Part shown: positions 5,451-44,000 of the stretch, piece by piece
Position numbering within the stretch: position 1 is the first letter of the stretch
How the letters are laid out: every line of letters starts with the position of its first letter
NCBI GenBank assembly: GCA_040954595.2
Contig: CM082583.2
Location: 2,242,925 to 2,306,924, forward strand
Length of the DNA stretch: 64,000 nt
Reading direction: 5' to 3'
Source: Balanoglossus misakiensis
Lineage: Eukaryota; Animalia; Hemichordata
Translations under genes and position numbers: made by a program
Notes under the pieces: model-generated
Seen by the model: the letters and a program-made list of their open reading frames with translations, nothing else
The model's database searches: none
Told to the model about the DNA's origin: nothing

Positions 5451-5613
5451 AGCCTGTAATTTACACAAAGGCTAACAAGGCAATACAAAACAGTATACTC
5501 TGTTTATATGTTCTCCAAAGATGTTCAAGTTAACATACTCTCTTACGTATGTTCTATAATTAGCACATGTTTTTTGAACGTGAAAGAAGACTTCTGATCA
5601 TTGTAGGAACGAA

Positions 5614-7489: not shown

Positions 7490-8892
7490 TAGGAACGAAC
7501 TCTCAATTTCATGGTCCACATTTTCTGAAATTTTACCAGTAAGCGACTCCAAATTCTTAACTGACACCTTGTATCAAAGGGTCAACGGTTATTATTACAA
7601 ATTCTACGATTTAGTCTTCCAAGGCTCCACCTAATCCAGTTCTTGAATAAAACTGATTATCCATGGACTCTCCTCGTCAAGTTATGCATGGCAATCCATT
7701 GTTAATGACACTGTCTCTACTGGATCGACAGTTAAAGGGGCGAAATCATAACACCAAACAAATAACCCACAAAAGAGACAAATTGGCGATGACGTGAAGA
7801 AATTCACACAAAGTGGTGTCTGCTGGGAGCTGTATCAAACCTCACTGCAAACAACACGTCACAATACCATCCAACGTGCACCAACAGCCACATTAGATTA
7901 TATTGTGAAACAAATCAATGAAAATGTGTATCTTAAAACACACAGTCATGGAACCATGTGTAAACAAATGAGATATATTCAAAATCAAATTGAATGACAG
8001 AGAAAAAAAATTTCTGAATGCAGAGATTTTTTTTCTGAATGCTCAAGAATTCCTACTCCAAGCTCGGTAGTGGACATTTGCACATGGTACCCCTGACGTC
8101 AAGTGTACTATTTTATCGTAAAGCACACAGTCAGGGAAGTGTAAACAAAACTAGATATATTCAAAATCAAAGAAAATGAATGGCTGAATGATTAAGTGAT
8201 CCAATGTAAACTTTTCTGTACATTATAAAAACAATAATTGTAACTCATAGAAAATTGACATCTTTTCTGAATATTGAAGGTTTGATGTCAAATGGGCAAT
8301 TTGAATCACTGGTTATCAATTTTGAGACGGCTTTGGCAACCAGACCTGATGTAAGGATTAACACCTCTCTACAACCCATTGTCTATGGGGCCGAGCCTCA
8401 GCGCCTATACATAAACTTTATGTGTGTGGACACAAGCGACTCAAAGGATTAATTCTCTGTGTTTACAAAAGGCAAATAGTGTCTCCGAAACGTTTCAAAT
8501 TTTTACCAGTGTGACCGTGGTATTATAAACAGGTACCCCAGACTTTGAATGACACACACACTTACACCACACAAACAAACAAACAAACAAACATAAATAC
8601 CCTATAACTATACTATATTATAACTAACTATAACTACAAGTAACAACTAACAAAATAACTTAATATACCTATATAAATAAACTGTTCAAATACAGATGTG
8701 TACACTGAAAGTAACTAAATTTACACAAATATATAAAAATGCATTGCAGGGATGCCCCCAAAACTACCGTAAGCACTGCAAGCTGGAAGTCCATGCGTCT
8801 ACGGACCTCTGTTGACAGATGAGACATCATGGAGACTGCATGGTAGTTGGACTTCTGGTCCAAATCATCTGGCCGCATTCCTCTGCTATGGT

Positions 8893-11723
8893 GGCATACA
8901 GATCAATCTCCGCCATCCTGCAACGCAGCATCTAGTTTCTGCATGGTACTATTGGTAGTCGGACTTCAATCTGCCAGTTGGCACACAGATCAATCTCCGC
9001 CATCCTTCAACACAGCATCTAGTTTCTGCATGGTACTATTGGTAGTCGGACTTCAATCTGCCAGTTGGCACACGGATCAGTGTTCTCCATCCTGCAAACC
9101 AGCATCTAGTTTCTGCATGGTACTATTGGTAGTCGGACTTCAATCTGCCAGTTGGCACACAGATCAGTGTTCTCCATCCTGCAAACCAGCATCTAGTTTC
9201 TACATGGTACTATTGGTAGTCGGACTTCAATCTGCCAGTTGGCACACAGATCAGTGTTCTCCGTCCTGCAAACCAGCATCTAGTTTCTGCATGGTACTAT
9301 TGGTAGTCGGACTTCAATCTGCCAGTTGGCACACGGATCAGTGTTCTCCATCCTGCAAACCAGCATCTAGTTTCTGCATGGTACTATTGGTAGTCGGACT
9401 TCAATCTGCCAGTTGGCACACGGATCAGTGTTCTCCATCCTGCAAACCAGCATCTAGTTTCTGCATGGTACTATTGGTAGTCGGACTTCAATCTGCCAGT
9501 TGGCACACAGATCAATGTTCTCCATCCTTCAACGCAGCATCTAGTTTATGCATGGTACTATTGGTAGTCGGACTTCAATCTGCCAGTTGACACACAGATC
9601 AGTGTTCTCCATCCTGCAAACCAGCATCTAGTTTCTGCATGGTACTATTGGTAGTCGGACTTCAATCTGCCAGTTGGCACACAGATCAGTGTTCTCCATC
9701 CTGCAAACCAGCATCTAGTTTCTGCATGGTACTATAGGTAGTCGGACTTCAATCTGCCAGTTGGCACACAGATCAATGTTCTCCATCCTGCAAACCAGCA
9801 TCTAGTTTCTGCATGGTACTATTGGTAGTCGGACTTCAATCTGCCAGTTGGCATACAGATCAATGTTCTCCATCCTTCAACGCAGCATCTAGTTTATGCA
9901 TGGTACTATTGGTAGTCGGACTTCAATCTGCCAGTTGGCACACAGATCAATGTTCTCCATCCTGCAAACCAGCATCTAGTTTCTGCATGGTACTATTGGT
10001 AGTCGGACTTCAATCTGCCAGTTGGCACACGGATCAGTGTTCTCCATCCTGCAAACCAGCATCTAGTTTCTGCATGGTACTATTGGTAGTCGGACTTCAA
10101 TCTGCCAGTTGACACACAGATCAGTGTTCTCCATCCTGCAAACCAGCATCTAGTTTCTGCATGGTACTATTGGTAGTCGGACTTCAATCTGCCAGTTGGC
10201 ACACAGATCAGTGTCCTCCGTCCTGCAAACCAGCATCTAGTTTCTGCATGGTACTATTGGTAGTCGGACTTCAATCTGCCAGTTGGCACACAGATCAGTG
10301 TTCTCCATCCTGCAAACCAGCATCTAGTTTCTGCATGGTACTATTGGTAGTCGGACTTCAATCTGCCAGTTGGCACACAGATCAGTGTCCTCCGTCCTGC
10401 AAACCAGCATCTAGTTTCTGCATGGTACTATTGGTAGTCGGACTTCAATCTGCCAGTTGGCACACGGATCAGTGTTCTCCATCCTGCAAACCCACATCTA
10501 GTCTCTGCATGGTACTATTGGTAGTCGGACTTCAATCTGCCAGTTGGCACACAGATCAATGTTCTCCATCCTGCAAACCAGCATCTAGTTTCTGCATGGT
10601 ACTATTGGTAGTCGGACCTCAATCTGCCAGTTGGCACACAGATCAATGTTCTCCATCCTGCAAACCAGCATCTAGTTTATGCATGGTACTATTGGTAGTC
10701 GGACCTCAATCTGCCAGTTGGCACACAGATCAATGTTCTACATCCTGCAAACCAGCATCTAGTTTCTGCATGGTACTATTGGTAGTCGGACCTCAATCTG
10801 CCAGTTGGCACACGGATCAGTGTTCTCCATCCTGCAAACCCACATCTAGTCTCTGCATGGTACTATTGGTAGTCGGACTTCAATCTGCCAGTTGGCACAC
10901 AGATCAATGTTCTCCATCCTGCAAACCAGCATCTAGTTTCTGCATGGTACTATTGGTAGTCGGACCTCAATCTGCCAGTTGGCACACAGATCAATGTTCT
11001 CCATCCTGCAAACCAGCATCTAGTTTATGCATGGTACTATTGGTAGTCGGACCTCAATCTGCCAGTTGGCACACAGATCAATGTTCTCCATCCTGCAAAC
11101 CCACATCTAGTCTCTGCATGGTACTATTGGTAGTCGGACTTCAATCTGCCAGTTGGCACACGGATCAGTGTTCTCCATCCTGCAAACCCACATCTAGTCT
11201 CTGCATGGTACTATTGGTAGTCGGACTTCAATCTGCCAGTTGGCACACAGATCAATGTTCTCCATCCTGCAAACCAGCATCTAGTTTCTGCATGGTACTA
11301 TTGGTAGTCGGACCTCAATCTGCCAGTTGGCACACAGATCAATGTTCTCCATCCTGCAAACCAGCATCTAGTTTATGCATGGTACTATTGGTAGTCGGAC
11401 TTCAATCTGCCAGTTGGCACACAGATCAATGTTCTCCATCCTGCAAACCAGCATCTAGTTTCTGCATGGTACTATTGTTAGTCGGACTTCAATCTGCCAG
11501 TTGGCACACAGATCAATGTTCTCCATCCTGCAAACCAGCATCTAGTTTCTGCATGGTACTATTGGTAGTCGGACCTCAATCTGCCAGTTGGCACACAGAT
11601 CAATGTTCTCCATCCTGCAAACCAGCATCTAGTTTCTGCATGGTACTATTGTTAGTCGGACTTCAATCTGCCAGTTGGCATACAGATCAATGTTCTCCAT
11701 CCTGCAAACCAGCATCTAGTTTC
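8893..11723 (-). repeat. 87-bp tandem array, ~32.5 copies, no net length change between copies
   Basis: Unit CATGGTACTATTGGTAGTCGGACTTCAATCTGCCAGTTGGCACACAGATCAGTGTTCTCCATCCTGCAAACCAGCATCTAGTTTCTG. Equivalent positions 8903 and 11687 differ by exactly 32x87. Confidence 0.97.
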
Positions 11724-11729
11724 TCGTGT
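9200..11729 (-). CDS. Candidate terminal exon of a spliced gene: HEKLDAGLQDGEH then TGA (stop, or Sec read-through of 58 TGA codons up to TAG at 9200-9202)
   Basis: Acceptor (T-run + cag) at 11730-11738. Phase matches the upstream exon 16032-15901 (AG|A = Arg). Repeat frame reads QKLDAGLQDGEH*SVCQLAD*SPTTNSTM with both stops TGA. Confidence 0.4.
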
Positions 11730-16068: not shown

Positions 16069-16656
16069 CTGTAAAACATGTTATTTTCGCGAGTTGAATT
16101 TTTTTGCGATATCGAGAGAGGCCACTGTTACGCGAGAATTAATTTTCGCGTTCTCATGCACATTGTTCTTTCACAATTATATTTTTGCTCTCCCGTATTT
16201 CGCTTAAATTTATTGCTCGCGAAAATAACCTGTTCTCACACTCCTGGCAGGCTGGGAGTGTGAGAACAGAGTGTGAGAACAAATTGTTCTCACACTCTCA
16301 CTGAATCGAAAGCTGTATATGACGCAAGCGCTGATTGGTTGACAAAGCATTATTTTGGTACGCGCGCTAAAAGTTATCCAATGGCGCGATGTGTATTACA
16401 GGGACAGAGACTACAACGTGTCCCCAGACGACAGTTCCAGCGTCATTTATTCAATGTTTTTAACGAATTAGGCTAATTTGTGACCGTGTGAGAAAAATAA
16501 TCTCACACACCAAGGACCTGGGATCATATTTCTCACACTCGTCAGAGATATTCTGTCCCACACTCGCCTGCGGCTCATGTGGGACATAAAATCCCCAACT
16601 CGTGTGAGAAATACGATCCCAGGACCTTGGGAGTGTGAAATTCTATTGTTCCACAG
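16069..16656. mobile_element. TA-flanked MITE interrupted by a second small element (~16235-16646)
   Basis: TA|CTGTAAAACATGTTATTTTCGCG ... CGCGAAAATAACCTGTT[insert]CCACAG|TA. The insert is flanked by TGTT (16231-16234, 16647-16650) and is rich in TCTCACAC/GTGTGAGA inverted motifs. Confidence 0.5.
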
Positions 16657-25727: not shown

Positions 25728-27996
25728 CATATTCCGTTGTGATGCGTAGAACACACAGGCCTGAGCGAATAAGAAAGTTTTCCGGTAGACTCTGTAGATC
25801 GACGGTTTGTTCTAAAATATCCATGGGTGCTTCCAAACATCGTCGCGTTATTTGCATATTCCGTTGTGATGCGAGAACACACAGGCCTGAGCGAATAAGA
25901 AAGTCTTCCGGTAGACTCTGTAGATCGACGGTTTGTTCTCAAATATCCATGGATGCTTCCAAACACTGTCTCGTTATTTGCATATTCCGTTGTGATGCGT
26001 AGAACACACTTGCCTGGGCGAATAAGAAAGTTTTCCGGTAGACTCTGTAGATCGACGGTTTGTTCTCAAATATCCATGGATGCTTCCAAACACCGTCTCG
26101 TTATTTGCATATTCCGTTGTGATGCGTAGAACACACAGGCCTGAGCGAATAAGAAAGTTTTCCGGTAGACTCTGTAGATCGACGGTTTGTTCTCAAATAT
26201 CCATGGATGCTTCCAAACACTGTCTCGTTATTTGCATATTCCGTTGTGATGCGAGAACACACAGGCCTGAGCGAATAAGAAAGTTTTCCGGTAGACTCTG
26301 TAGATCGACTGTTTGTTCTCAAATATCCATGGATGCTTCCAAACACTGTCTCGTTATTTGCATATTCCGTTGTGATGCGTAGAACACACTTGCCTGGGCG
26401 AATAAGAAAGTTTTCCGGTAGACTCTGTAGATCGACGGTTTGTTCTCAAATATCCATGGATGCTTCCAAACGCCGTCTCGTTATTTGCATATTACGTTGT
26501 GATGCGTAGAACACACAGGCCTGAGCGAATAAGAAAGTTTTCCGGTAGACTCTGTAGATCGACGGTTTGTTCTAAAATATCCATGGGTGCTTCCAAACAT
26601 CGTCGCGTTATTTGCATATTCCGTTGTGATGCGAGAACACACAGGCCTGAGCGAATAAGAAAGTTTTCCGGTAGACTCTGTAGATCGACGGTTTGTTCTC
26701 AAATATCCATGGATGCTTCCAAACACTGTCTCGTTATTTGCATATTCCGTTGTGATGCGTAGAACACACTTGCCTGGGCGAATAAGAAAGTTTTCCGGTA
26801 GACTCTGTAGATCGACGGTTTGTTCTCAAATATCCATGGATGCTTCCAAACACCGTCTCGTTATTTGCATATTCCGTTGTGATGCGTAGAACACACAGGC
26901 CTGAGCGAATAAGAAAGTTTTCCGGTAGACTCTGTAGATCGACGGTTTGTTCTCAAATATCCATGGATGCTTCCAAACACTGTCTCGTTATTTGCATATT
27001 CCGTTGTGATGCGAGAACACACAGGCCTGAGCGAATAAGAAAGTTTTCCGGTAGACTCTGTAGATCGACTGTTTGTTCTCAAATATCCATGGATGCTTCC
27101 AAACACTGTCTCGTTATTTGCATATTCCGTTGTGATGCGTAGAACACACTTGCCTGGGCGAATAAGAAAGTTTTCCGGTAGATTCTGTAGATCGACGGTT
27201 TGTTCTCAAATATCCATGGATGCTTCCAAACGCCGTCTCGTTATTTGCATATTACGTTGTGATGCGTAGAACACACAGGCCTGAGCGAATAAGAAAGTTT
27301 TCCGGTAGACTCTGTAGATCGACGGTTTGTTCTCAAATATCCATGGATGCTTCCAAACGCCGTCTCGTTATTTGCATATTACGTTGTGATGCGTAGAACA
27401 CACAGGCCTGAGCGAATAAGAAAGTTTTCCGGTAGACTCTGTAGATCGACGGTTTGTTCTCAAATATCCATGGATGCTTCCAAACACTGTCTCGTTATTT
27501 GCATATTACGTTGTGATGCGTAGAACACACAGGCCTGAGCGAATAAGAAAGTTTTCCAGTAGACTCTGTAGATCGACTGTTTGTTCTCAAATATCCATGG
27601 ATGCTTCCAAACACTGTCTCGTTATATGCATATTACGTTGTGATGCGAGAACACACTTGCCTGGGCGAATAAGAAAGTTTTCCGGTAGACTCTGTAGATC
27701 GACTGTTTGTTCTCAAATATCCATGGATGCTTCCAAACACTGTCTCGTTATTTGCATATTACGTTGTGATGCGAGAACACACAGGCCTGAGCGAATAAGA
27801 AAGTTTTCCGGTAGACTCTGTAGATCGACTGTTTGTTCTCAAATATCCATGGATGCTTCCAAACACTGTCTCGTTATTTGCATATTCCGTTGTGATGCGA
27901 GAACACACAGGCCTGAGCGAATAAGAAAGTTTTCCAGTAGACTCTGTAGATCGACTGTTTGTTCTCAAATATCCATGGATGCTTCCAAACACTGTC
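25728..27996. repeat. 126/127-bp satellite, left block (~18 monomers)
   Basis: Unit CCGTTGTGATGCG(T)AGAACACACAGGCCTGAGCGAATAAGAAAGTTTTCCGGTAGACTCTGTAGATCGACTGTTTGTTCTCAAATATCCATGGATGCTTCCAAACACTGTCTCGTTATTTGCATATT. Variants recur at 380-bp and 760-bp periods. Confidence 0.98.
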
Positions 27997-28030
27997 AGTA
28001 GTATAGGTTGGAGCCGTAGCACTCTCATTT

Positions 28031-28546
28031 GGGGAGGAGGAGCTGAGGAGGAGCTGAGGAGGAGCTGAGGAGGAGCTGAGGAGGAGGAGCTGAGGAGGAG
28101 GCGGAGGAGCTGAGGAGGAGGAGCTGAGGAGGAGGCGGAGGAGCTGAGGAGGAGCTGAAGAGGAGGAGCTGAGGAGGAGGAGCTGAGGAGGAGGAGCTGA
28201 GGAGGAGGAGCTGAGGAGGAGGAGCTGAGGAGGAGGAGCTGAGGAGGAGGAGGCGGAGGAGCTGAGGAGGAGGAGGAGGAGGAGGAGGAGGAGGAAGAGG
28301 AGGAGGAGCTGAGGAGGAGGAGGAGGAGGAGGAGGAGGAGGAGGAGGAGGAGCTGAGGAGGAGGAGGAGCTGAGGAGGAGGAGGAGCTGAGGAGGAGCTG
28401 AGGAGGAGGAGGAGCTGAGGAGGAGGAGGAGGAGGAGGAGGAGCTGAGGAGGAGGAGGAGCTGAGGAGGAGGAGCTGAGGAGGAGGAGCTGAGGAGGAGG
28501 AGGAGCTGAGGAGGAGGAGGAGCTGAGGAGGAGGAGGAGGAGGAGG
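28031..28546 (+). repeat. Subterminal (GAG)n/GAGCT low-complexity tract
   Basis: Purine-rich tract. The mirror copy at ~40779-41013 is 281 bp shorter. Confidence 0.95.
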
Positions 28547-28913
28547 CAGACATGGTCCCCTAAGTTGGTGGAAAATTGAGATATGGTTAAGTATATATGG
28601 AACGTGCTTTGATTGGTGGACTTTCTGCAAAGCATGATGTTGGGAGGAGGAGGAGGAGGAGGAGGAGCTGAGGAGGAAGAGGAGGAAGTGGAGGTGATGT
28701 TGGGAGGAGGCAGAGGAGGCAGTGGAGGTGATGTTGGGAGGAGGTGATGAGAGGCGAAGAAGGCCTATCACCCATCACCAAGTTCGATTGTGACCCGAGT
28801 AGCGACCCGAGTAGCTGCCGCTGACGTCATCCCATTCTAGTTCGCATGCGCATAAGCGTAACCCGGGAGATTTCAAACGAACGATACTAGCGTAGCAACC
28901 CATGTAAACAAAT

Positions 28914-30565
28914 ATGGCGACTGAGTTCGAAGATTTCTTGTTTTTGCGTACTTTTTTTGAGGATTTTGATGAATCTTTAGATTCTGCGGCAGTTTGGCAA
29001 CTCCGAATAAATACTGCCATCATTGCCTCTCTGAGCTGTTTATTTTTGCGCCGAAAATACATCCCGAAGATACAAAATTTTGCCGAAGATATCGTACCTC
29101 AGTATTCTTTGCAGGATTTTTGCATCCATTTCCGTATTTGCAAAGATATCTTCACGTTTGTTCTGGGTCGCATCGCCCACAAACTGGCAATAGAACAATG
29201 CGGTGGCCGCCCTCAAGTGCCTCCAGAAAAACAATTATTGGTATGGATTTGGTACATGGTAAACCAGGAATCCATCAGAGAAGTTGGTCACATTTTCAAT
29301 CTCTCCAAATCCACAGTCCATTCAACAGTAAAGCGTGTCACAAAAGCTATCATTGCTGTGATGAAAGATGTAAGTACATTGTAAAGTACATTTTCTAGAT
29401 TATCTTCATGGATTATTTTTGAATACAAATGTATTTTAACATTTCAATAATATACAGTTGGTAATGCATAATTTCAAGCTCTGTTTAATTATTGCTATCA
29501 AAGAACATATTAAAGGGGACAGTTAAAAATTATCCTTTAGCATTTTCTTTTAGTATTATGGTTCTCTGTGTCAACATTTTTTTTTCTACTGCACTCTGTA
29601 TAGCAAGCTGAAATGTCCAATATTATGTTTGTCATAATTGCAGGTATGTGTAAAAATTAATGTTGAAAAATGACTTATCAATATTTGTAGGTTATCAGGT
29701 GGCCAACACAAGAGCGACAGAGGGAGATTTCACAGAGTTTTCAGCTTGATTGTGGTTTACCAGGTATAGTGGGCATTATTGATGGCACTCACATTAGACT
29801 GGCTGGTTGTATTGGTGGAGCTCAAGACTATATAAATAGGAAAGGTTATCCATTCATGCAACTTCAGGTAAGAAAATTCATTTTTTAATTTTATAGAGAA
29901 AAATTTATATCTTCCATCATGACATGTGTCATTCTTGAATTTAAAAATAAAACCTGTTGAAATGTTGGTTAGTCTCTGCCATTGAGAATTTTATCAAGTT
30001 ACATAAATGTAGGAGATTCTTGACAAAAAGTGTCCTTTTTTTCAGGTCATTGTTGATGATAATCTATTAATCACCAATGCATACACTGGATGGCCTGGTT
30101 GTACACACGATGCCCGTGTCCTTCGAAATTCTTCCCTGTACACAAGACTGGAGACTAATGAAGTAACTATGGGTCCTGGGAGATACATCATTGGTGATTC
30201 TGCATACCCTTTGAGAGAATGGCTTATTACTCCCTTCAGAGACAATGGATTTTTAACCATTCAGCAGCGCAGGTTCAATCGCGTCTTTTCATCCTGCCGT
30301 CAAAATGTTGAACGATCAATTGGGCATTTAAAGGGTCGTGTTAGGAGGCTCAGAGAATTGCCTATGCATAGTCCTGAAGATGTGTGAGACTATAATTTCT
30401 GGCTGTATTCTTCACAATCTATGTATTATCCATCATGATGATGTGGAAAACTATATTGATTTAGATCCACAGCATATTGATGATCCAAACCAATATCCAA
30501 ATGTTCATGTGAATGCACCTGGGGGTATTGCCAGAAGACAGCAACTCATGAATCATTTACATTAA
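28914..30565 (+). pseudogene. PIF/Harbinger (HARBI1-like) DDE transposase, 3 exons (28914-29369, 29691-29867, 30046-30565), late frameshift
   Basis: Phase-0 GT-AG introns. Motifs GIIDGTHI, NRKGY, GWPGCTHDARV, IGDSAYPL, VERSIGHLKGR. A frameshift at ~30380-30387 (GATGTGTGAGAC) separates the C-terminal GCILHNLC. Confidence 0.92.
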
Positions 30566-31420
30566 GAGTGTCAACATCATTAGGTATCTTAATGGATTGC
30601 CTTTCACACATGAAAATGAAACCTTTTTCTTGATTTAGTTATAAAAATAAGTTATGCACTGGGATAAATGTTTTTTTTATCATCTTGTTATGCACATTGT
30701 GTATTTGAAGTGTTAAGTGTGACTCTGGACATGAAATATTTATTGATTAAAATATATATGGTTAAGTCGACACTGAAGGATTCAAAGCCTGACTTTCTAT
30801 TGCTGGTAACATTTTAAATGTACAATCTTACCTGGATAAAAAAAAAAACACACTTTATGTTTGTATATGATATAACAATTTATTGTAAAGGTTCAAATGT
30901 TTTTTAAAGATAAAGAATTCACTTTTATCCATCAATAATAATAATAGAATAAATATTATAGACAATAAATACATTCATAAGTTATGCAATAATTACTTAA
31001 TAAATAAAGAGTATCAATATATTAACTATAAACATTGGTAATGACTTTTGAATTTTTACATTTGTTTTTAAAGTTCAACGTCTTCATACATATAATACAT
31101 ACATACCATACATACATAAATGCCAACAGCAATGCTAATAAATTATTTGAGATTTTCAAAATATTTTTTAAGGTTATCATGTGTACATGGAATAATTCTG
31201 ATTAAAAATTGAGTTTGTCAAATAAAAAAAAAAAAATCATCACGAACATGTAGTATGAACATATAACACTCCAATAAAATTTTAACAATTGTCCAGAAAT
31301 TCAGATACTTCTACAACTATAACAGTATCAATGAAAACGTTTAGTAACAATAAACTTTATGAAATATTTCATTTAGATAAAACATTTTTGAATTTTGTCA
31401 AATTTATTATACGGTAATCT

Positions 31421-32288
31421 TTAGTTCTTATTGACAGACTGCTCGTATAAATCCAACATTCTATCCATTCTTCTCATTTTCTCTGTATGTTGTTTTTCCA
31501 TCATCCCAAACAAATCATCATTTTTCTTTTCCATTTGTGTAATTGCAGCCATCAATTTATCTTGTGGGGATACTCTGTCGGATATTTTGTTTCTTTTTCT
31601 GTGTGTACGTGGTGTTGCATGTGTGTCAGATGTGCTTGGTGTTGCATGTGTGTCAGATGTGCTTGGTGTTGCATGTGTGTCAGATGTGCTTGGTGTTATC
31701 TCTGTAGGTTCTGTAGTCGTCATTTCTGTTGTTGTTTCTGTCACTGTGTCTGTGTTATTTTTACTTTTGTCGGTCGTCAAATCAAGCGAATCCATCGTAC
31801 ATGTGGGCTGTGTCGATTCCTTCATCCCATATAAATTATCAAACTCATTGAAATGTCGACACGTTTTCCTTTCTGCTCCAGTTTTCTTTCGGTTATCAAT
31901 CACTTCCATATAATTTTTTTAAAATTTTTCCATTTATCCCTTGCCTGTGTGACAGACACAGAAACCCCCGCCTCTCCCATTTTAGACACAATGGACTGCC
32001 ACAACTTCTCATGTCTAACACTAGTTTTAAATAAATCTTCCATGTCAGACCTCAACACTACAAGTAAATTTTCTTCTCTATCATTCCAAATGTGAATTCT
32101 AGCTACGTTTTCTGTGCTGTGTGATGTTGTTCCTGCTTTACTTGGTTCATGTGGTTGCTGAGTGTTTGTGTTCTTTTCACCTTGTCCTTGACTGCTTTGG
32201 TTCTGGTCGAGGTCTTGTACCTTTTCCTTTTGTTTTCCGTTGTGTGCTGCAATAGCTTGTGAAATGATAGCTTGTTTGATGTTAGAGT
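31421..32288 (-). pseudogene. Harbinger accessory Myb/SANT (trihelix) DNA-binding protein, last exon, frameshifted
   Basis: Mirror copy of 37037-37904, convergent with the transposase. Confidence 0.85.
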
Positions 32289-32536
32289 CTGTTAAATATA
32301 AGAATGGGTATAGTCAAGACAAGTTTATTTCTATTTGCTCACCAAAACATGATTCTATCAGATTAATTACTGTTGAACTTGAATCCTTAGTACATAAAAC
32401 CAAAAATGAAATTATTTAATTATAGTTCAGCTTTGTAGAGATATTTAGACATTTTACCACTTTTAGATGACCAACACAGAAAATATTTGTTTATAAACAT
32501 AAGTGACGTGAGCGGACAATGCCTTAGACACACAGT

Positions 32537-32573
32537 CCCTAACCCTAACCCTAACCCCTAACCCTAACCCTAA
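32537..32573 (-). repeat. Short telomere-like (CCCTAA)n tract followed by a G15 run
   Basis: About 6 CCCTAA units; mirrored as (TTAGGG)n at 36752-36788. Confidence 0.85.
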
Positions 32574-33069
32574 GCCTAAAAGTGCATATAAATTGACGTA
32601 GGGGGGGGGGGGGGGGTAAATTAGTCTTGTAAAATACTGTCTCTCTGAATGTATACCTAGAACAACAGGGAAGTATTTGGTATCAAAAGAAAGCTTAATA
32701 AACAAGCTTTCCATTAATTACAAAATTAAAGTGATATGACAAATCATGACATCATAGTGACGTCATAAGTCAAAATACCCTTACGAAAATGGTGTTCTGT
32801 TCACCTATAATTTGTATAAATGTGAGGTTTTGCAAAACACGTCTCTGAGCAATTGTACTGATGAAAACTGTGATGTGTTTGGTATCAACAGAAAGCTGAT
32901 TGAGTAAAGTATCTAATTATTGCAAAATATTGATATAATAATCAATTACGTCATCATTACGTCATACTTCCAAGTACCCTTACCAATTAGTGACTATGAT
33001 GACAAGTTATTACCTAGGAGATAGGTGCCTTTAAAAAAAAAAAAAAATTGGTAAGGAAGGTTTGTGAAG

Positions 33070-34700
33070 TCCATTCTATGTAAAAAATAGTGCTGATTCC
33101 AAAAAAGGCAGTCTTATTGACCCCACCCAAGACAAAATTGCCATTTTGGCACTTTTTAACCCAAAAATGTCATTTTTAGAAAACACTAAAAACACACTGT
33201 TTTCGTCACATTCGAAGATCTGATGACATATGATATGCCTATTCTATGTAAAATTTGGTTGATATTACGAAAAAGGCAGTCTAACTGACCCCACCTAAGA
33301 CAAAATTGCCGTTTTGGCACTTTTTAACCCAAAAAACACACTGTTTTCGTCACATTCGAAGATCTGATGACATATGATATGCCTATTCTATGTAAAATTT
33401 GGTTGATATTACGAAAAAAGCAGTCTGACTGACCCCAAACGAGACAAAATTGCCTTTTTGACCATTTTTTGCCCAAAAACGTCATTTTTAGACAAAACTG
33501 AAAACACACTCTTCTCTTCATATTGATTGATTTGATGATATATGGAAAGTCAATTCTATGTGTAAAATGGTGACTATAAAACATAAAGCAATCTTTTTGA
33601 CCCCAATCAATACAAAAATGCCATTTTTGGCCATATTTTTGAGGTCAAAAAAGGTCATTTTTACAAAAAAACTAAAAACAAACTGTTTTCTTCATATTCA
33701 GAGATCATGTGATATATGAAAAGTTTATGCTATGTAAAATAGTTCTGATTCCAGAAATAGCAGCCTTATTAACCCCCACTCAAGGCAAATGTGCCATTTT
33801 TGCCACTTTTTGCCCCAAAAATGTCATTTTTAGAAAACACTCAAAACTTATATATTTTCTTCACTTTCGGAGATCTGATAATGTATTGTATACCCACCTT
33901 GTGTAAAATTTGGTAGGTATTCAAAAAAGTAGGTTTATTGGCGCCACTCAAGATTAAAGTGCGTTTTTTGGCAAGTTTTTGCCCAAAAAGGCCATTTTAA
34001 GAAATAAGCAAACGTTTTTCTTTGTATTTGGAAATTTGATCATGTATGAAAAGTCCATTTATTGAAAAATTGCTGTTGACTCTAGAAAAAGCAATCTTAT
34101 TGATCTCAATGAAGATGAAAATACTTTTTGCCCAAAAAGGGTCATTTTTAGAAAATACTAAAAACAAGCTATTTGTTTCCCTTTGGTGATCTAATAATAA
34201 ATAAAAGTCCATTCTATCTTAAAATTAGCGATTTTTCCAAAAAAGCACTCTTACTGACTCCACAGAGGGAAAAAATGCCATTTTGGCCACTTTGCTCAAA
34301 AAAGGTAACTGTTTGAAAACTTCTTTCTTTATTTTCAGATCTTATGATGTACGGAGAAGGTCCATTTTTGTTGAATGGGAGCCGATTCCAAAAAAAAAAA
34401 AAAAAAAAATCTTTTCAGCCCTTCAAAATTGTCATTTTGGCCATTTTTGGTCAAAAAGGTCATTTCAAGAAAAAATGAAAAACAAGCTGTTTTCTTCGTA
34501 TTTAAATGTTTGATTATGAATGGAAAGTCCATTTTTTGCAAAAAAATATGCTGATACCAACGCAACAGTCTTATTAAGACCCCACTCAATACAAAATTGC
34601 CACTAAGCCATCTTCTAGTCAACAATTGTCTTTTTCAGAAAACAAAATAATTGGTGTTTTTTTTGCCTTTTGAGTTTTGATGTTATATTTGCATATTTAA
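33070..34700 (+). repeat. Diverging ~144-167-bp tandem subrepeat array (foldback-like)
   Basis: Recurring AAAGTCCATTCTATGTAAAA...GCAGTCTTATTGACCCCAC...AAAATTGCCATTTTGGC units that decay toward the centre. Confidence 0.8.
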
Positions 34701-35339
34701 AATGTCATACCATATGATATCAGTTGAATTGATGATATTGAAAGGCAGAGTTGCCACAATTTGGCACATTTAGCCCAAAATGGAACTCAACAATAAAACG
34801 AGACGATCCATGTATTCACACTGTATACTATAAGTCGGTTATACATGGTATAATTGTTTTAAGTACATCTATACCAGCTCCGGATAGATTGTTAACATTT
34901 ATCCTCTTCGTTCTGAATACAAAATCAGAAATTATATTATATCATGATACCTCCGTCATTTTGATTGGACAGGGGTGCAATCCCACGATGCTAAATACTC
35001 AATAGAGCTAAAACTGGCCCCTGAACTAGCACACAACGGGAAAATGTGGGTTTAAACCTAATAAATATAATAAAAACTCTTAAATTCCTTGACGTTTCAA
35101 TTTGGAGATGCTCTAAGTGAATATTTGGGACTTTGCCATGTGCAGTGCCTGTCTTTTTGTCGCCTGTATCATGTTTAATGCTTGGTCCTGGGCGACGTGT
35201 TTAGATTCATCGATGCGACTTTGGTTCAATTCGTATAACTTCTTTTACTGTCGTCGCTGTGTCATCATCATTATGAGTTCAATTTGGGCTATCTCCAAAT
35301 GCAAACATTTTTTTCTCTAGAAAATGTTTAAAATGATAA

Positions 35340-36260
35340 ATTTGTCTTAAATAGGTCTTTTTAGGCAATAAATTGCCAAAAACGCAATCTTGACTAGAAT
35401 GGGGTCAATCAGATTTTTTATACACAGAATGGACTTTTCATACATAATCAGATCTCTGAATATGAAGAAAACAGTTTGTTTTTAGTTTTTTTGTAAAAAA
35501 TGACCTTATTTGACCTCAAAAATGTGGCCAAAAATGGCATTTTTGTATTGATTGGGGTCAAAAAGACTGCTTTATGTTTTATAGTCACCAACTTACACAT
35601 AGAATTGACTTTCCATATATCATCAAATCAATCAATATGAAGAGAAGAGTGTGTTTTCAGTTTTGTCTAAAAATGACGTTTTTGGGCAAAAAATGGTCAA
35701 AAAGGCAATTTTGTCTCGTTTGGGGTCAGTCAGACTGCTTTTTTCGTAATATCAACCAAATTTTACATAGAATAGGCATATCATATGTCATCAGATCTTC
35801 GAATGTGACGAAAACAGTGTGTTTTTTGGGTTAAAAAGTGCCAAAACGGCAATTTTGTCTTAGGTGGGGTCAGTTAGACTGCCTTTTTCGTAATATCAAC
35901 CAAATTTTACATAGAATAGGCATATCATATGTCATCAGATCTTCGAATGTGACGAAAACAGTGTGTTTTTAGTGTTTTCTAAAAATGACATTTTTGGGTT
36001 AAAAAGTGCCAAAATGGCAATTTTGTCTTGGGTGGGGTCAGTTAGACTGCCTTTTTCGTAATATCAACCAAATTTTACATAGAATAGGCATATCATATGT
36101 CATCAGATCTTCGAATGTGACGAAAACAGTGTGTTTTTAGTGTTTTCTAAAAATGACATTTTTGGGTTAAAAAGTGCCAAAATGGCAATTTTGTCTTGGG
36201 TGGGGTCAATAAGACTGCCTTTTTTGGAATCAGCACCATTTTTTACATAGAATGGACTTC
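35340..36260 (-). repeat. Inverted copy of the ~167-bp subrepeat array
   Basis: Same units in reverse orientation. One extra 167-bp unit relative to the left arm (mirror sum shifts from 69325 to 69158). Confidence 0.8.
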
Positions 36261-36751
36261 ACAAACCTTCCTTACCAATTTTTTTTTTTTTTTAAAGGCA
36301 CCTATCTCCTAGGGTAATAACTTGTCATCATAGTCACTAATTGGTAAGGGTACTTGGAAGTATGACGTAATGATGACGTAATTGATTATTATATCAATAT
36401 TTTGCAATAATTAGATACTTTACTCAATCAGCTTTCTGTTGATACCAAACACATCACAGTTTTCATCAGTACAATTGCTCAGAGACGTGTTTTGCAAAAC
36501 CTCACATTTATACAAATTATAGGTGAACAGAACACCATTTTCGTAAGGGTATTTTGACTTATGACGTCACTATGATGTCATGATTTGTCATATCACTTTA
36601 ATTTTGTAATTAATGGAAAGCTTGTTTATTAAGCTTTCTTTTGATACCAAATACTTCCCTGTTGTTCTAGGTATACATTCAGAGAGACAGTATTTTACAA
36701 GACTAATTTACCCCCCCCCCCCCCTACGTCAATTTATATGCACTTTTAGGC

Positions 36752-36788
36752 TTAGGGTTAGGGTTAGGGGTTAGGGTTAGGGTTAGGG
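36752..36788 (+). repeat. Short telomere-like (TTAGGG)n tract
   Basis: TTAGGGTTAGGGTTAGGGGTTAGGGTTAGGGTTAGGG. Confidence 0.85.
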
Positions 36789-37036
36789 ACTGTGTGTCTA
36801 AGGCATTGTCCGCTCACGTCACTTATGTTTATAAACAAATATTTTCTGTGTTGGTCATCTAAAAGTGGTAAAATGTCTAAATATCTCTACAAAGCTGAAC
36901 TATAATTAAATAATTTCATTTTTGGTTTTATGTACTAAGGATTCAAGTTCAACAGTAATTAATCTGATAGAATCATGTTTTGGTGAGCAAATAGAAATAA
37001 ACTTGTCTTGACTATACCCATTCTTATATTTAACAG

Positions 37037-37904
37037 ACTCTAACATCAAACAAGCTATCATTTCACAAGCTATTGCAGCACACAACGGAAAACAAAAGGA
37101 AAAGGTACAAGACCTCGACCAGAACCAAAGCAGTCAAGGACAAGGTGAAAAGAACACAAACACTCAGCAACCACATGAACCAAGTAAAGCAGGAACAACA
37201 TCACACAGCACAGAAAACGTAGCTAGAATTCACATTTGGAATGATAGAGAAGAAAATTTACTTGTAGTGTTGAGGTCTGACATGGAAGATTTATTTAAAA
37301 CTAGTGTTAGACATGAGAAGTTGTGGCAGTCCATTGTGTCTAAAATGGGAGAGGCGGGGGTTTCTGTGTCTGTCACACAGGCAAGGGATAAATGGAAAAA
37401 TTTTAAAAAAATTATATGGAAGTGATTGATAACCGAAAGAAAACTGGAGCAGAAAGGAAAACGTGTCGACATTTCAATGAGTTTGATAATTTATATGGGA
37501 TGAAGGAATCGACACAGCCCACATGTACGATGGATTCGCTTGATTTGACGACCGACAAAAGTAAAAATAACACAGACACAGTGACAGAAACAACAACAGA
37601 AATGACGACTACAGAACCTACAGAGATAACACCAAGCACATCTGACACACATGCAACACCAAGCACATCTGACACACATGCAACACCAAGCACATCTGAC
37701 ACACATGCAACACCACGTACACACAGAAAAAGAAACAAAATATCCGACAGAGTATCCCCACAAGATAAATTGATGGCTGCAATTACACAAATGGAAAAGA
37801 AAAATGATGATTTGTTTGGGATGATGGAAAAACAACATACAGAGAAAATGAGAAGAATGGATAGAATGTTGGATTTATACGAGCAGTCTGTCAATAAGAA
37901 CTAA
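37037..37904 (+). pseudogene. Harbinger accessory Myb/SANT (trihelix) protein, last exon, 1-bp frameshift; 5' exon not found
   Basis: Acceptor ttaacag at 37036. Reads HIWNDREENLLVVLR...RHEKLWQSIVSKM...QARDKWKN, then shifts frame in the T4A7 run (~37401-37411) to YMEVIDNRKKTGAERKTCRHFNEFDNLYG. Contains 3x TPSTSDTHA and a C-terminal coiled coil. Confidence 0.85.
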
Positions 37905-38759
37905 AGATTACCGTATAATAAATTTGACAAAATTCAAAAATGTTTTATCTAAATGAAATATTTCATAAAGTTTATTGTTACTAAACGTTTTCATTGATAC
38001 TGTTATAGTTGTAGAAGTATCTGAATTTCTGGACAATTGTTAAAATTTTATTGGAGTGTTATATGTTCATACTACATGTTCGTGATGATTTTTTTTTTTT
38101 TATTTGACAAACTCAATTTTTAATCAGAATTATTCCATGTACACATGATAACCTTAAAAAATATTTTGAAAATCTCAAATAATTTATTAGCATTGCTGTT
38201 GGCATTTATGTATGTATGGTATGTATGTATTATATGTATGAAGACGTTGAACTTTAAAAACAAATGTAAAAATTCAAAAGTCATTACCAATGTTTATAGT
38301 TAATATATTGATACTCTTTATTTATTAAGTAATTATTGCATAACTTATGAATGTATTTATTGTCTATAATATTTATTCTATTATTATTATTGATGGATAA
38401 AAGTGAATTCTTTATCTTTAAAAAACATTTGAACCTTTACAATAAATTGTTATATCATATACAAACATAAAGTGTGTTTTTTTTTTTATCCAGGTAAGAT
38501 TGTACATTTAAAATGTTACCAGCAATAGAAAGTCAGGCTTTGAATCCTTCAGTGTCGACTTAACCATATATATTTTAATCAATAAATATTTCATGTCCAG
38601 AGTCACACTTAACACTTCAAATACACAATGTGCATAACAAGATGATAAAAAAAACATTTATCCCAGTGCATAACTTATTTTTATAACTAAATCAAGAAAA
38701 AGGTTTCATTTTCATGTGTGAAAGGCAATCCATTAAGATACCTAATGATGTTGACACTC

Positions 38760-40411
38760 TTAATGTAAATGATTCATGAGTTGCTGTCTTCTGGCAATAC
38801 CCCCAGGTGCATTCACATGAACATTTGGATATTGGTTTGGATCATCAATATGCTGTGGATCTAAATCAATATAGTTTTCCACATCATCATGATGGATAAT
38901 ACATAGATTGTGAAGAATACAGCCAGAAATTATAGTCTCACACATCTTCAGGACTATGCATAGGCAATTCTCTGAGCCTCCTAACACGACCCTTTAAATG
39001 CCCAATTGATCGTTCAACATTTTGACGGCAGGATGAAAAGACGCGATTGAACCTGCGCTGCTGAATGGTTAAAAATCCATTGTCTCTGAAGGGAGTAATA
39101 AGCCATTCTCTCAAAGGGTATGCAGAATCACCAATGATGTATCTCCCAGGACCCATAGTTACTTCATTAGTCTCCAGTCTTGTGTACAGGGAAGAATTTC
39201 GAAGGACACGGGCATCGTGTGTACAACCAGGCCATCCAGTGTATGCATTGGTGATTAATAGATTATCATCAACAATGACCTGAAAAAAAGGACACTTTTT
39301 GTCAAGAATCTCCTACATTTATGTAACTTGATAAAATTCTCAATGGCAGAGACTAACCAACATTTCAACAGGTTTTATTTTTAAATTCAAGAATGACACA
39401 TGTCATGATGGAAGATATAAATTTTTCTCTATAAAATTAAAAAATGAATTTTCTTACCTGAAGTTGCATGAATGGATAACCTTTCCTATTTATATAGTCT
39501 TGAGCTCCACCAATACAACCAGCCAGTCTAATGTGAGTGCCATCAATAATGCCCACTATACCTGGTAAACCACAATCAAGCTGAAAACTCTGTGAAATCT
39601 CCCTCTGTCGCTCTTGTGTTGGCCACCTGATAACCTACAAATATTGATAAGTCATTTTTCAACATTAATTTTTACACATACCTGCAATTATGACAAACAT
39701 AATATTGGACATTTCAGCTTGCTATACAGAGTGCAGTAGAAAAAAAAATGTTGACACAGAGAACCATAATACTAAAAGAAAATGCTAAAGGATAATTTTT
39801 AACTGTCCCCTTTAATATGTTCTTTGATAGCAATAATTAAACAGAGCTTGAAATTATGCATTACCAACTGTATATTATTGAAATGTTAAAATACATTTGT
39901 ATTCAAAAATAATCCATGAAGATAATCTAGAAAATGTACTTTACAATGTACTTACATCTTTCATCACAGCAATGATAGCTTTTGTGACACGCTTTACTGT
40001 TGAATGGACTGTGGATTTGGAGAGATTGAAAATGTGACCAACTTCTCTGATGGATTCCTGGTTTACCATGTACCAAATCCATACCAATAATTGTTTTTCT
40101 GGAGGCACTTGAGGGCGGCCACCGCATTGTTCTATTGCCAGTTTGTGGGCGATGCGACCCAGAACAAACGTGAAGATATCTTTGCAAATACGGAAATGGA
40201 TGCAAAAATCCTGCAAAGAATACTGAGGTACGATATCTTCGGCAAAATTTTGTATCTTCGGGATGTATTTTCGGCGCAAAAATAAACAGCTCAGAGAGGC
40301 AATGATGGCAGTATTTATTCGGAGTTGCCAAACTGCCGCAGAATCTAAAGATTCATCAAAATCCTCAAAAAAAGTACGCAAAAACAAGAAATCTTCGAAC
40401 TCAGTCGCCAT
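38760..40411 (-). pseudogene. PIF/Harbinger DDE transposase, mirror copy (exons 40411-39956, 39634-39458, 39279-38760)
   Basis: Identical translation and identical frameshift to 28914-30565. Confidence 0.92.
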
Positions 40412-41047
40412 ATTTGTTTACATGGGTTGCTACGCTAGTATCGTTCGTTTGAAATCTCCCGGGTTACGCTTATGCGCATGCGAACTAGAATGGGATGACG
40501 TCAGCGGCAGCTACTCGGGTCGCTACTCGGGTCACAATCGAACTTGGTGATGGGTGATAGGCCTTCTTCGCCTCTCATCACCTCCTCCCAACATCACCTC
40601 CACTGCCTCCTCTGCCTCCTCCCAACATCACCTCCACTTCCTCCTCTTCCTCCTCAGCTCCTCCTCCTCCTCCTCCTCCTCCCAACATCATGCTTTGCAG
40701 AAAGTCCACCAATCAAAGCACGTTCCATATATACTTAACCATATCTCAATTTTCCACCAACTTAGGGGACCATGTCTGCCTCCTCCTCCTCCTCCTCCTC
40801 AGCTCCTCCTCCTCCTCAGCTCCTCCTCCTCAGCTCCTCCTCCTCAGCTCCTCCTCCTCAGCTCCTCCTCCTCAGCTCCTCCTCTTCAGCTCCTCCTCAG
40901 CTCCTCCGCCTCCTCCTCAGCTCCTCCTCCTCAGCTCCTCCGCCTCCTCCTCAGCTCCTCCTCCTCAGCTCCTCCTCAGCTCCTCCTCAGCTCCTCCTCA
41001 GCTCCTCCTCCCCAAATGAGAGTGCTACGGCTCCAACCTATACTACT

Positions 41048-44000
41048 ACTGTCTCGTTATTTGCATATTACGTTGTGATGCGAGAACACACTTGCCTGGG
41101 CGAATAAGAAAGTTTTCCGGTAGACTCTGTAGATCGACTGTTTGTTCTCAAATATCCATGGATGCTTCCAAACACTGTCTCGTTATTTGCATATTACGTT
41201 GTGATGCGTAGAACACACAGGCCTGAGCGAATAAGAAAGTTTTCCGGTAGACTCTGTAGATCGACGGTTTGTTCTCAAATATCCATGGATGCTTCCAAAC
41301 ACTGTCTCGTTATTTGCATATTACGTTGTGATGCGTAGAACACACAGGCCTGAGCGAATAAGAAAGTTTTCCAGTAGACTCTGTAGATCGACTGTTTGTT
41401 CTCAAATATCCATGGATGCTTCCAAACACTGTCTCGTTATATGCATATTACGTTGTGATGCGAGAACACACTTGCCTGGGCGAATAAGAAAGTTTTCCGG
41501 TAGACTCTGTAGATCGACTGTTTGTTCTCAAATATCCATGGATGCTTCCAAACACTGTCTCGTTATTTGCATATTACGTTGTGATGCGAGAACACACAGG
41601 CCTGAGCGAATAAGAAAGTTTTCCGGTAGACTCTGTAGATCGACTGTTTGTTCTCAAATATCCATGGATGCTTCCAAACACTGTCTCGTTATTTGCATAT
41701 TCCGTTGTGATGCGAGAACACACAGGCCTGAGCGAATAAGAAAGTTTTCCAGTAGACTCTGTAGATCGACTGTTAGTTCTCAAATATCCATGGATGCTTC
41801 CAAACACTGTCTCGTTATTTGCATATTACGTTGTGATGCGAGAACACACTTGCCTGGGCGAATAAGAAAGTTTTCCGGTAGACTCTGTAGATCGACTGTT
41901 TGTTCTCAAATATCCATGGATGCTTCCAAACACTGTCTCGTTATTTGCATATTACGTTGTGATGCGTAGAACACACAGGCCTGAGCGAATAAGAAAGTTT
42001 TCCAGTAGACTCTGTAGATCGACTGTTTGTTCTCAAATATCCATGGATGCTTCCAAACACTGTCTCGTTATTTGCATATTACGTTGTGATGCGAGAACAC
42101 ACTTGCCTGGGCGAATAAGAAAGTTTTCCGGTAGACTCTGTAGATCGACTGTTTGTTCTCAAATATCCATGGATGCTTCCAAACACTGTCTCGTTATTTG
42201 CATATTCCGTTGTGATGCGTAGAACACACTTGCCTGGGCGAATAAGAAAGTTTTCCGGTAGACTCTGTAGATCGACGGTTTGTTCTCAAATATCCATGGA
42301 TGCTTCCAAACGCCGTCTCGTTATTTGCATATTACGTTGTGATGCGTAGAACACACAGGCCTGAGCGAATAAGAAAGTTTTCCGGTAGACTCTGTAGATC
42401 GACGGTTTGTTCTCAAATATCCATGGATGCTTCCAAACACCGTCTCGTTATTTGCATATTCCGTTGTGATGCGAGAACACACAGGCCTGAGCGAATAAGA
42501 AAGTTTTCCGGTAGACTCTGTAGATCGACTGTTTGTTCTCAAATATCCATGGATGCTTCCAAACACCGTCTCGTTATTTGCATTTTCCGTTGTGATGCGT
42601 AGAACACACAGGCCTGAGCGAATAAGAAAGTTTTCCGGTAGACTCTGTAGATCGACTGTTTGTTCTAAAATATCCATGGATGCTTCCAAACACCGTCTCG
42701 TTATTTGCATTTTCCGTTGTGATGCGTAGAACACACAGGCCTGAGCGAATAAGAAAGTTTTCCGGTAGACTCTGTAGATCGACTGTTTGTTCTAAAATAT
42801 CCATGGATGCTTCCAAACGCCGTCTCGTTATTTGCATTTTCCGTTGTGATGCGAGAACACACAGGCCTGGGCGAATAAGAAAGTTTTCCGGTAGACTCTG
42901 TAGATCGACGGTTTGTTCTCAAATATCCATGGATGCTTCCAAACGCCGTCTCGTTATTTGCATATTACGTTGTGATGCGTAGAACACACAGGCCTGAGCG
43001 AATAAGAAAGTTTTCCGGTAGACTCTGTAGATCGACTGTTTGTTCTCAAATATCCATGGATGCTTCCAAACACTGTCTCGTTATTTGCATATTCCGTTGT
43101 GATGCGTAGAACACACAGGCCTGAGCGAATAAGAAAGTTTTCCGGTAGACTCTGTAGATCGACTGTTTGTTCTAAAATATCCATGGATGCTTCCAAACAC
43201 CGTCTCGTTATTTGCATTTTCCGTTGTGATGCGTAGAACACACAGGCCTGAGCGAATAAGAAAGTTTTCCGGTAGACTCTGTAGATCGACTGTTTGTTCT
43301 AAAATATCCATGGATGCTTCCAAACGCCGTCTCGTTATTTGCATTTTCCGTTGTGATGCGAGAACACACAGGCCTGGGCGAATAAGAAAGTTTTCCGGTA
43401 GACTCTGTAGATCGACGGTTTGTTCTCAAATATCCATGGATGCTTCCAAACGCCGTCTCGTTATTTGCATATTACGTTGTGATGCGTAGAACACACAGGC
43501 CTGAGCGAATAAGAAAGTTTTCCGGTAGACTCTGTAGATCGACTGTTTGTTCTAAAATATCCATGGATGCTTCCAAACGCCGTCTCGTTATTTGCATATT
43601 ACGTTGTGATGCGTAGAACACACTTGCCTGGGCGAATAAGAAAGTTTTCCGGTAGACTCTGTAGATCGACTGTTTGTTCTAAAATATCCATGGATGCTTC
43701 CAAACACTGTCTCGTTATTTGCATATTCCGTTGTGATGCGAGAACACACAGGCCTGAGCGAATAAGAAAGTTTTCCGGTAGACTCTGTAGATCGACTGTT
43801 TGTTCTCAAATATCCATGGATGCTTCCAAACACTGTCTCGTTATTTGCATATTCCGTTGTGATGCGAGAACACACAGGCCTGAGCGAATAAGAAAGTTTT
43901 CCGGTAGACTCTGTAGATCGACTGTTTGTTCTCAAATATCCATGGATGCTTCCAAACACCGTCTCGTTATTTGCATATTACGTTGTGATGCGTAGAACAC

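Follow-up and report, generated by a model that had tools for sequence, protein, structure and literature searches.

Related systems and the palindromic element

Polinton/Maverick and PIF/Harbinger transposons are the described systems closest to the locus considered here, a palindromic element of 13,051 bp at positions 27997–41047 of a 64,000-nucleotide stretch of Balanoglossus misakiensis DNA (GenBank assembly GCA_040954595.2, contig CM082583.2, positions 2,242,925–2,306,924, forward strand). The whole of this stretch is referred to as the window, and all positions are given in its coordinates. Intact vertebrate Mavericks measure 12.7–24.6 kb and have terminal repeats of 46–1,447 bp (PMC8097293, Barreat and Katzourakis 2021), and the terminal repeats of nematode Polintons measure 100–1,500 bp (PMC10748475, Jeong et al. 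2023). The commonest signature of vertebrate Mavericks consists of (AGT)2//(ACT)2 ends with a 6-bp target-site duplication (PMC8097293), and PIF/Harbinger elements make a 3-bp TWA duplication (PMC4482050). Cargo genes have been described in Mavericks (Widen et al., bioRxiv 10.1101/2022.07.12.499685), and PMC8097293 notes a Harbinger that sits on a Maverick-like scaffold. Inverted repeats in the interior of adenovirus vectors provoke rearrangement during replication (PMC2518115).

The element resembles a Polinton/Maverick in its (AGT)2//(ACT)2 ends, its 6-bp duplication and its 13.05-kb length, near the lower limit of the 12.7–24.6 kb range. Unlike a Polinton/Maverick, it carries no core genes in the frames scanned, and its arms are 5.6–5.7 kb long, against terminal repeats of 46–1,447 or 100–1,500 bp. 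With PIF/Harbinger it shares a relic that has a DDE_Tnp_4 nuclease with a helix-turn-helix (HTH) domain and a Myb/SANT partner, the two being convergent here; however, the relic is broken, has no intact pair of ends and no visible TWA duplication, the trait that sets PIF/Harbinger apart from the Nuwa and Pangu groups, and is embedded twice in another element. Like the cargo-bearing Mavericks, the element holds foreign, intron-bearing sequence within Maverick-type ends, but their cargo is single and sits beside core genes, whereas the present cargo is disrupted and duplicated as a mirror image, with no core genes in the frames scanned. The adenovirus vectors are alike in being a protein-primed linear replicon whose internal inverted repeats are the point of rearrangement; they are engineered and not integrated, so that the parallel is an analogy only. 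Our literature search, which left subscription journals and Repbase Reports mostly outside, found no description of giant palindromic non-autonomous Polintons, and the two papers checked for a connection of palindromic repeats in nematodes with the ends of Polintons did not show one.

On balance, we favour the reading that the element is a palindromic Polinton derivative, formed by copy-back of one end that bore a broken Harbinger and inserted by a helper.

Polinton-type ends and target-site duplication

The element sits inside a satellite array, begins with AGTAGT from 27997 and finishes with ACTACT up to 41047, and is flanked on both sides by an exact 6-bp duplication, ACTGTC. Joining the two flanks restores an ordinary satellite word at an overlap of 6 bp only (eight exact matches), and none of the nine other overlaps tried (0–5 and 7–9) gave a satellite match. 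Within the window, the terminal 20-mer occurs solely at the element's two ends. The arms (27997–33706, 5,710 bp, and 35450–41047, 5,598 bp) account for 87% of the element length and enclose a spacer of 1,743 bp. These measurements, and the agreement between the ends and the flank overlaps, bear out the initial annotation, made from the sequence alone, which had described inverted arms of 5.6–5.7 kb around a 1.7-kb spacer, AGTAGT...ACTACT termini and a 6-bp ACTGTC duplication.

Each arm reads, from the end towards the centre, as a 36-bp terminus, a GGA array, a 234-bp subterminal segment and the Harbinger relic, followed in the inner third by a telomere-like tract, a high-depth repeat and a 168-bp array. 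The features are given below, one per line, with strand where one applies; contigs of public sequencing runs, designated X1 to X5, are called run contigs.

25728–27996, plus strand: 126/127-bp satellite of the host, the portion of the target array left of the element, which resumes at 41048–64000 in the same orientation and phase
27991–27996, plus strand: left copy of the target-site duplication, ACTGTC, from the flank comparison
27997–28032, plus strand: left terminus, (AGT)2 and about 30 bp of unique sequence
28033–28546, plus strand: GGA/GGAGCTGA tandem repeats over 514 bp, against 233 bp on the right
28547–28780, plus strand: subterminal part of the Polinton-type end, containing 34-bp repeats and lying outside the Harbinger, which run contigs join from 28781 only
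28781–32527: left Harbinger relic, right boundary approximate (32527–32536)
28914–30565, plus strand: HARBI1-like DDE nuclease gene of three exons (28914–29369, 29691–29867 and 30046–30565) with GT-AG introns
31421–32288, minus strand: Myb/SANT gene, second exon only, frame broken near 31915–31925
32537–32579, plus strand: (CCCTAA)7 telomere-like tract at the Harbinger cut-off point
32587–33072: separate high-depth repeat, two 160-bp modules 69% alike
33073–34644: left array of about 10 tandem 168-bp units, increasingly degenerate towards the centre
34645–35340: unique 696-bp loop without a recognisable gene
35341–36253: right 168-bp array, inverted, about 5.5 units, one extra exact unit
36746–36788, plus strand: (TTAGGG)7 tract, mirror of 32537–32579
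37037–37904, plus strand: broken Myb/SANT exon, mirror copy
38760–40411, minus strand: broken nuclease gene, mirror copy
40545–41011, minus strand: right subterminal segment and CCT array (array at 40779–41011)
41012–41047, minus strand: right terminus with the final (ACT)2; run contigs stop exactly at 41047
41048–41053, plus strand: right copy of the target-site duplication

Of the two Polinton end motifs considered, (AGT)2//(ACT)2 and (AG)3//(CT)3, the element carries the former, together with a 6-bp duplication read from one insertion; it differs from an autonomous Polinton in showing no core genes in the frames scanned and in having arms outside the range of about 0.05–1.5 kb for terminal inverted repeats. 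The assignment of AG(T) termini with a 6-bp duplication to Polinton/Maverick, proposed in the initial annotation, agrees with PMC8097293. Its further proposal, that the genes inside did not insert the unit, holds as well, because the duplication is of 6 bp, while PIF/Harbinger makes a 3-bp TWA (PMC4482050). We regard a Polinton-dependent element with copying between its arms as very probable, whichever way it originated; that it behaves as a non-autonomous Polinton derivative with a single copy-back origin is the narrower claim, which we consider probable to a lesser degree.

Two other assignments were weighed. The element could belong to another, unrecognised inverted-repeat family that makes 6-bp duplications, its Polinton-like ends being incidental: membership in the Polintons rests on a 6-bp motif and one duplication, with no Polinton gene in the scanned frames and no helper in the viral scans. 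To our knowledge, no other superfamily combines (AGT)2//(ACT)2 ends with a 6-bp duplication. This combination is the commonest vertebrate Maverick end in PMC8097293, which makes an unrecognised family improbable. Secondly, the presence of two inverted transposase cassettes around a central block recalls a composite transposon, in which two Harbinger copies would have moved the unit jointly. This is extremely unlikely, as the unit extends beyond the Harbinger by 784 bp on the left and by about 500 bp on the right, its duplication is of 6 bp and not TWA, and both the Harbinger ends and the Harbinger genes are broken.

Two small features of the arms are recorded here. In the (TTAGGG)7 tracts (32537–32579 and 36746–36788), the G-rich strand is directed outward from the centre; the tract may be a repair scar or a portion of the adjoining high-depth repeat. 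A 7-bp inverted repeat (28743–28779) crosses the point where the Polinton-type end gives way to the Harbinger and is possibly the trace of a template switch, or due to chance.

A dead Harbinger in each arm

The nuclease gene in each arm matches DDE_Tnp_4 (Pfam, E 1e-21), and an HTH is also present. Among 161 longer candidates, its sole match is a 384-aa protein of the hemichordate Ptychodera flava (P0001), to which it is 74–90% identical piece by piece. The frame is broken near 30380, where the covering X1 and X2 contigs differ from the window by a full-depth indel. The Myb/SANT gene (E 2e-10) is convergent with the nuclease gene in both arms and has one match among 130 candidates, a 309-aa P. 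flava protein (P0002), residues 40–309 of which align to it in two frames with 58–62% identity. Residues 1–39 of P0002, corresponding to the first Myb exon, were not found in the arm; a search for this exon between the second exons gave a score of 22, against a mean of 29 for 200 shuffles and 44–193 for seven controls. The relic thus retains the gene pair of a PIF/Harbinger element, a DDE and HTH transposase with a Myb/SANT second gene, and both genes are broken.

The ends of the Harbinger are no better preserved. At 28781, run contigs that stem from elsewhere in the genome join the window; in them this point is preceded by GGCCG, which is missing from the window (two such contigs each in X1 and X2, with a blurred consensus). 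The left end is damaged, and the right end is absent together with the first Myb exon; one X1 contig runs 633 letters further beyond 32527. A search for Harbinger terminal inverted repeats within one arm gave only motif pairs of 9–11 bp and no convincing partner for the left end.

Among the 17 element frames compared with Pfam, drawn from the frames of at least 100 aa and not comprising every frame, only Harbinger domains were found. The 11 non-Harbinger frames, including those of the loop and arrays, had no Pfam family above the cut-off, and none of the element frames scanned held a gene for pPolB, integrase, ATPase, protease or capsid. Rfam gave 0 matches on the element.

The Harbinger is therefore a dead, passive passenger, unable to move itself or the unit: with its ends and genes broken, and given that Harbinger makes TWA, the cassette is immobile and is not the source of the 6-bp duplication. 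The two mirrored Harbinger cassettes of the initial annotation are present, with nuclease and Myb/SANT in each arm, but not as working cargo, since they are broken, truncated and without ends. Functional cargo genes were rejected on the same grounds, both frames being broken and the first Myb exon and the right end gone.

Several further observations concern the Harbinger family. Two words, one CRE-like and the other AT-rich and 11 bp long, recur in similar form and inverted orientation at 28818–28915 and 32483–32515, near both ends of the relic; those on the Myb side (32483–32515) lie upstream of the second exon, probably in the first intron. X1 and X2 contigs contain a related Harbinger derivative from which 2,658 bases between the two genes are missing (29673 to 32332). 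In addition, contig depth rises over 28700–29150, which is consistent with short non-autonomous Harbinger relatives.

Probable copying from arm to arm

Over about 5,286 aligned columns, which run from the terminus to 33565 and include introns, a single substitution separates the arms, and they share every Harbinger lesion and have identical truncation points. Compared with four long X1 contigs (among the rows listed), both arms have the same seven substitutions in about 3.36 kb, and several indels, one of them at the nuclease break, are likewise common to both. Independent copies at that distance would be expected to show about 14 differences, and the probability of none is about 8e-7, a calculation valid only if the X1 contigs represent the Harbinger family; the runs that hold most of the window (X1–X3) come from one sample of one study, possibly from another individual. 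The shared lesions and truncation points, together with the near identity of the arms, point to copying of one arm from the other, and the identical truncation points lead to the same argument without the assumption that the contigs represent the family.

The inner limit of the copied tract is visible in the alignment. Arm mismatches per 50 bp, counted inward, are 0 throughout 33118–33549, then 3, 1 and 1, and then 13/50 and 8/29, so that over 33566–33750 the arms go from 100% identical to about 75%. The decay is confined to the inverted 168-bp arrays beside the spacer, and because identity falls there, the copied tract ends within these older inverted arrays. On the evidence of the alignment, one arm is likely a copy of its counterpart, and the inverted 168-bp arrays are the likely fold-back point.

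Satellite flanks and the integrity of the assembly

The host 126/127-bp satellite (25728–27996 and 41048–64000) extends over at least 25 kb and shows local six-unit duplications. Satellite anchors in the window number 195 forward and 0 reverse. A 506-bp four-unit block has exactly two occurrences, at 27365 and 41180, one per side and with six-unit spacing. An edit distance of 1 separates the five units left of the element from the block beginning one unit beyond its right end, against a next best of 12 and a median of 20 for five-unit satellite blocks (152 blocks). Excision of the element in silico leaves a 758-bp tandem duplication of the satellite, the copies of which are 1 base apart and one of which is interrupted. 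Because this matching duplication spans the insertion, the flanks belong together, and the interruption of a single copy places the insertion, a young one, after a satellite duplication whose divergence is about 0.6% at most.

The same data bear on whether the element is real while its arm identity, or the palindrome itself, was made by the assembly through read collapse, polishing or a fold-back chimera. Spanning reads were not seen, homopolymer runs of at least 7 bases are of equal length between the arms in 7 of 9 cases, and both frame breaks fall within short repeats; some homogenisation of the arms during polishing may have occurred. However, the arms are not carbon copies, since the GGA array measures 514 bp in one and 233 bp in the other, two homopolymers differ in length, and an additional 168-bp unit is present on the right. 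The uniform direction of the satellite anchors, the exact 6-bp duplication, the 506-bp block present once per side and the five-unit block at distance 1 from its counterpart (median 20) all argue against an assembly origin, as does the presence of the terminus in public contigs. We thus consider an assembly origin very unlikely. The fold-back artefact against which the initial annotation had warned is rejected, the flanks being direct and in phase and the 6-bp duplication exact.

Other copies of the terminus

Among the contigs listed for the query 41000–41082, those that reach the terminus stop exactly at 41047, in two sequence variants (depths of 410 and 743 in X1, and of 1792 and 2025 in X2), and one X1 contig passes the terminus into a non-satellite flank. 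The terminus forms a sharp branch point in these contigs and is likely an end common to diverse flanks, and other insertions likely exist. The repeat at 32587–33072 has a summed X1 depth near 13,000, compared with 185–400 for the Harbinger interior; contig depth is not taken as copy number. The X4 and X5 runs (organism B) gave short low-complexity matches and two low-depth contigs over 32587–33060, and were not used. No RNA run was among those listed as containing the sequence, an outcome that says nothing about expression.

Neither the terminus nor P0001 had a match in the metagenome scans. One of three scans of viral collections returned a 21-base match in a phage-like contig; it lies inside an unrelated coding region and was dismissed as chance.

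Origin of the palindrome

The copy-back origin would proceed as follows. A one-ended or asymmetric Polinton remnant would acquire a Harbinger, truncated later, and would also gain a repeat block with two inverted 168-bp arrays. The pPolB of a helper would replicate this remnant by protein-primed strand displacement, and the displaced single strand would fold at the inverted 168-bp arrays and be extended. In this way, all sequence outward of about 33565 would be copied, yielding a second arm and a second working end, and the helper's retroviral-like integrase would place the product into the satellite. The identity gradient would arise where the new copy meets the older inverted repeats, as copy-back predicts. 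In adenovirus vectors, the rearrangement products are reportedly two-ended mirror genomes (Steinwaerder et al. 1999).

The main rival keeps the helper and makes the correction recurrent: the palindrome would predate its passenger, as a standing long-armed Polinton family whose arms are kept alike by repeated panhandle copy-correction, and the Harbinger would have hit one arm and then been copied, with its lesions, into the other. The stepwise inward decay of identity suits this reading. A weak hint in the same direction comes from depth, which is not copy number: the X1 terminus contigs are deeper (410 and 743) than the Harbinger contigs (185–402), so that many ends may be without the passenger. 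Against it, a Harbinger lacking both intact ends requires extra deletion steps, and a passenger-free palindromic copy was not seen. We consider a palindrome older than its passenger rather unlikely, although it is the strongest competitor of the single copy-back event.

Several points weigh against the copy-back derivative. An older palindrome that underwent repeated copy-correction would account equally well for the stepwise decay (0, about 3%, about 25%), and the calculation on shared lesions is weakened by the single sample, possibly of a different individual, behind it. No read or listed run contig crosses a junction or the whole element. Only one target duplication, that of a single insertion, was read, the other contigs giving no readable flank pair. 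Two of the three viral-collection scans with terminal and subterminal patterns were blank, and no helper Polinton was seen in the pattern scans, which covered viral and metagenome sequence.

If the copy-back origin is correct, its wider meaning can be considered, with due reserve. It is conceivable, though we would put it no higher than a tentative suggestion, that Polintons give rise to integrated satellites through copy-back, much as viruses produce defective interfering genomes. Under this same tentative suggestion, doubling of the end would restore a second origin and give a packageable length of about 13 kb, and any arm DNA, here a dead Harbinger, might act as stuffer. Were such satellites real, the same route could take intact transposons between hosts in helper capsids. 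Polinton replication has been deduced from gene content and not from observed intermediates, and the element offers a genomic test of the panhandle/strand-displacement model. The passenger lesions, probably private to the element and shared by its arms, are a record of arm-to-arm copying and of the point where it stopped. The locus also carries a warning for annotation, as its genes would file the element as a Harbinger, though other machinery inserted it. The palindromic architecture, if unpublished, would come as a surprise to specialists.

Other features of the window

Outside the element and its satellite, four further features were observed. A degraded remnant of a Tc1/mariner transposase with frameshifts lies at 1935–2685 (HTH_Tnp_Tc3_2, E 6e-12). 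The 1.9-kb segment at 5613–7490, bounded by 155-bp inverted repeats that are 98% identical, is probably a young non-autonomous DNA transposon. The tandem array at 8892–11724 repeats an 87-bp unit 32.6 times at 96% identity and contains a long open repeat frame. Finally, an imperfect 170-bp hairpin at 16487–16655, 76% self-complementary, resembles a miniature inverted-repeat transposable element.

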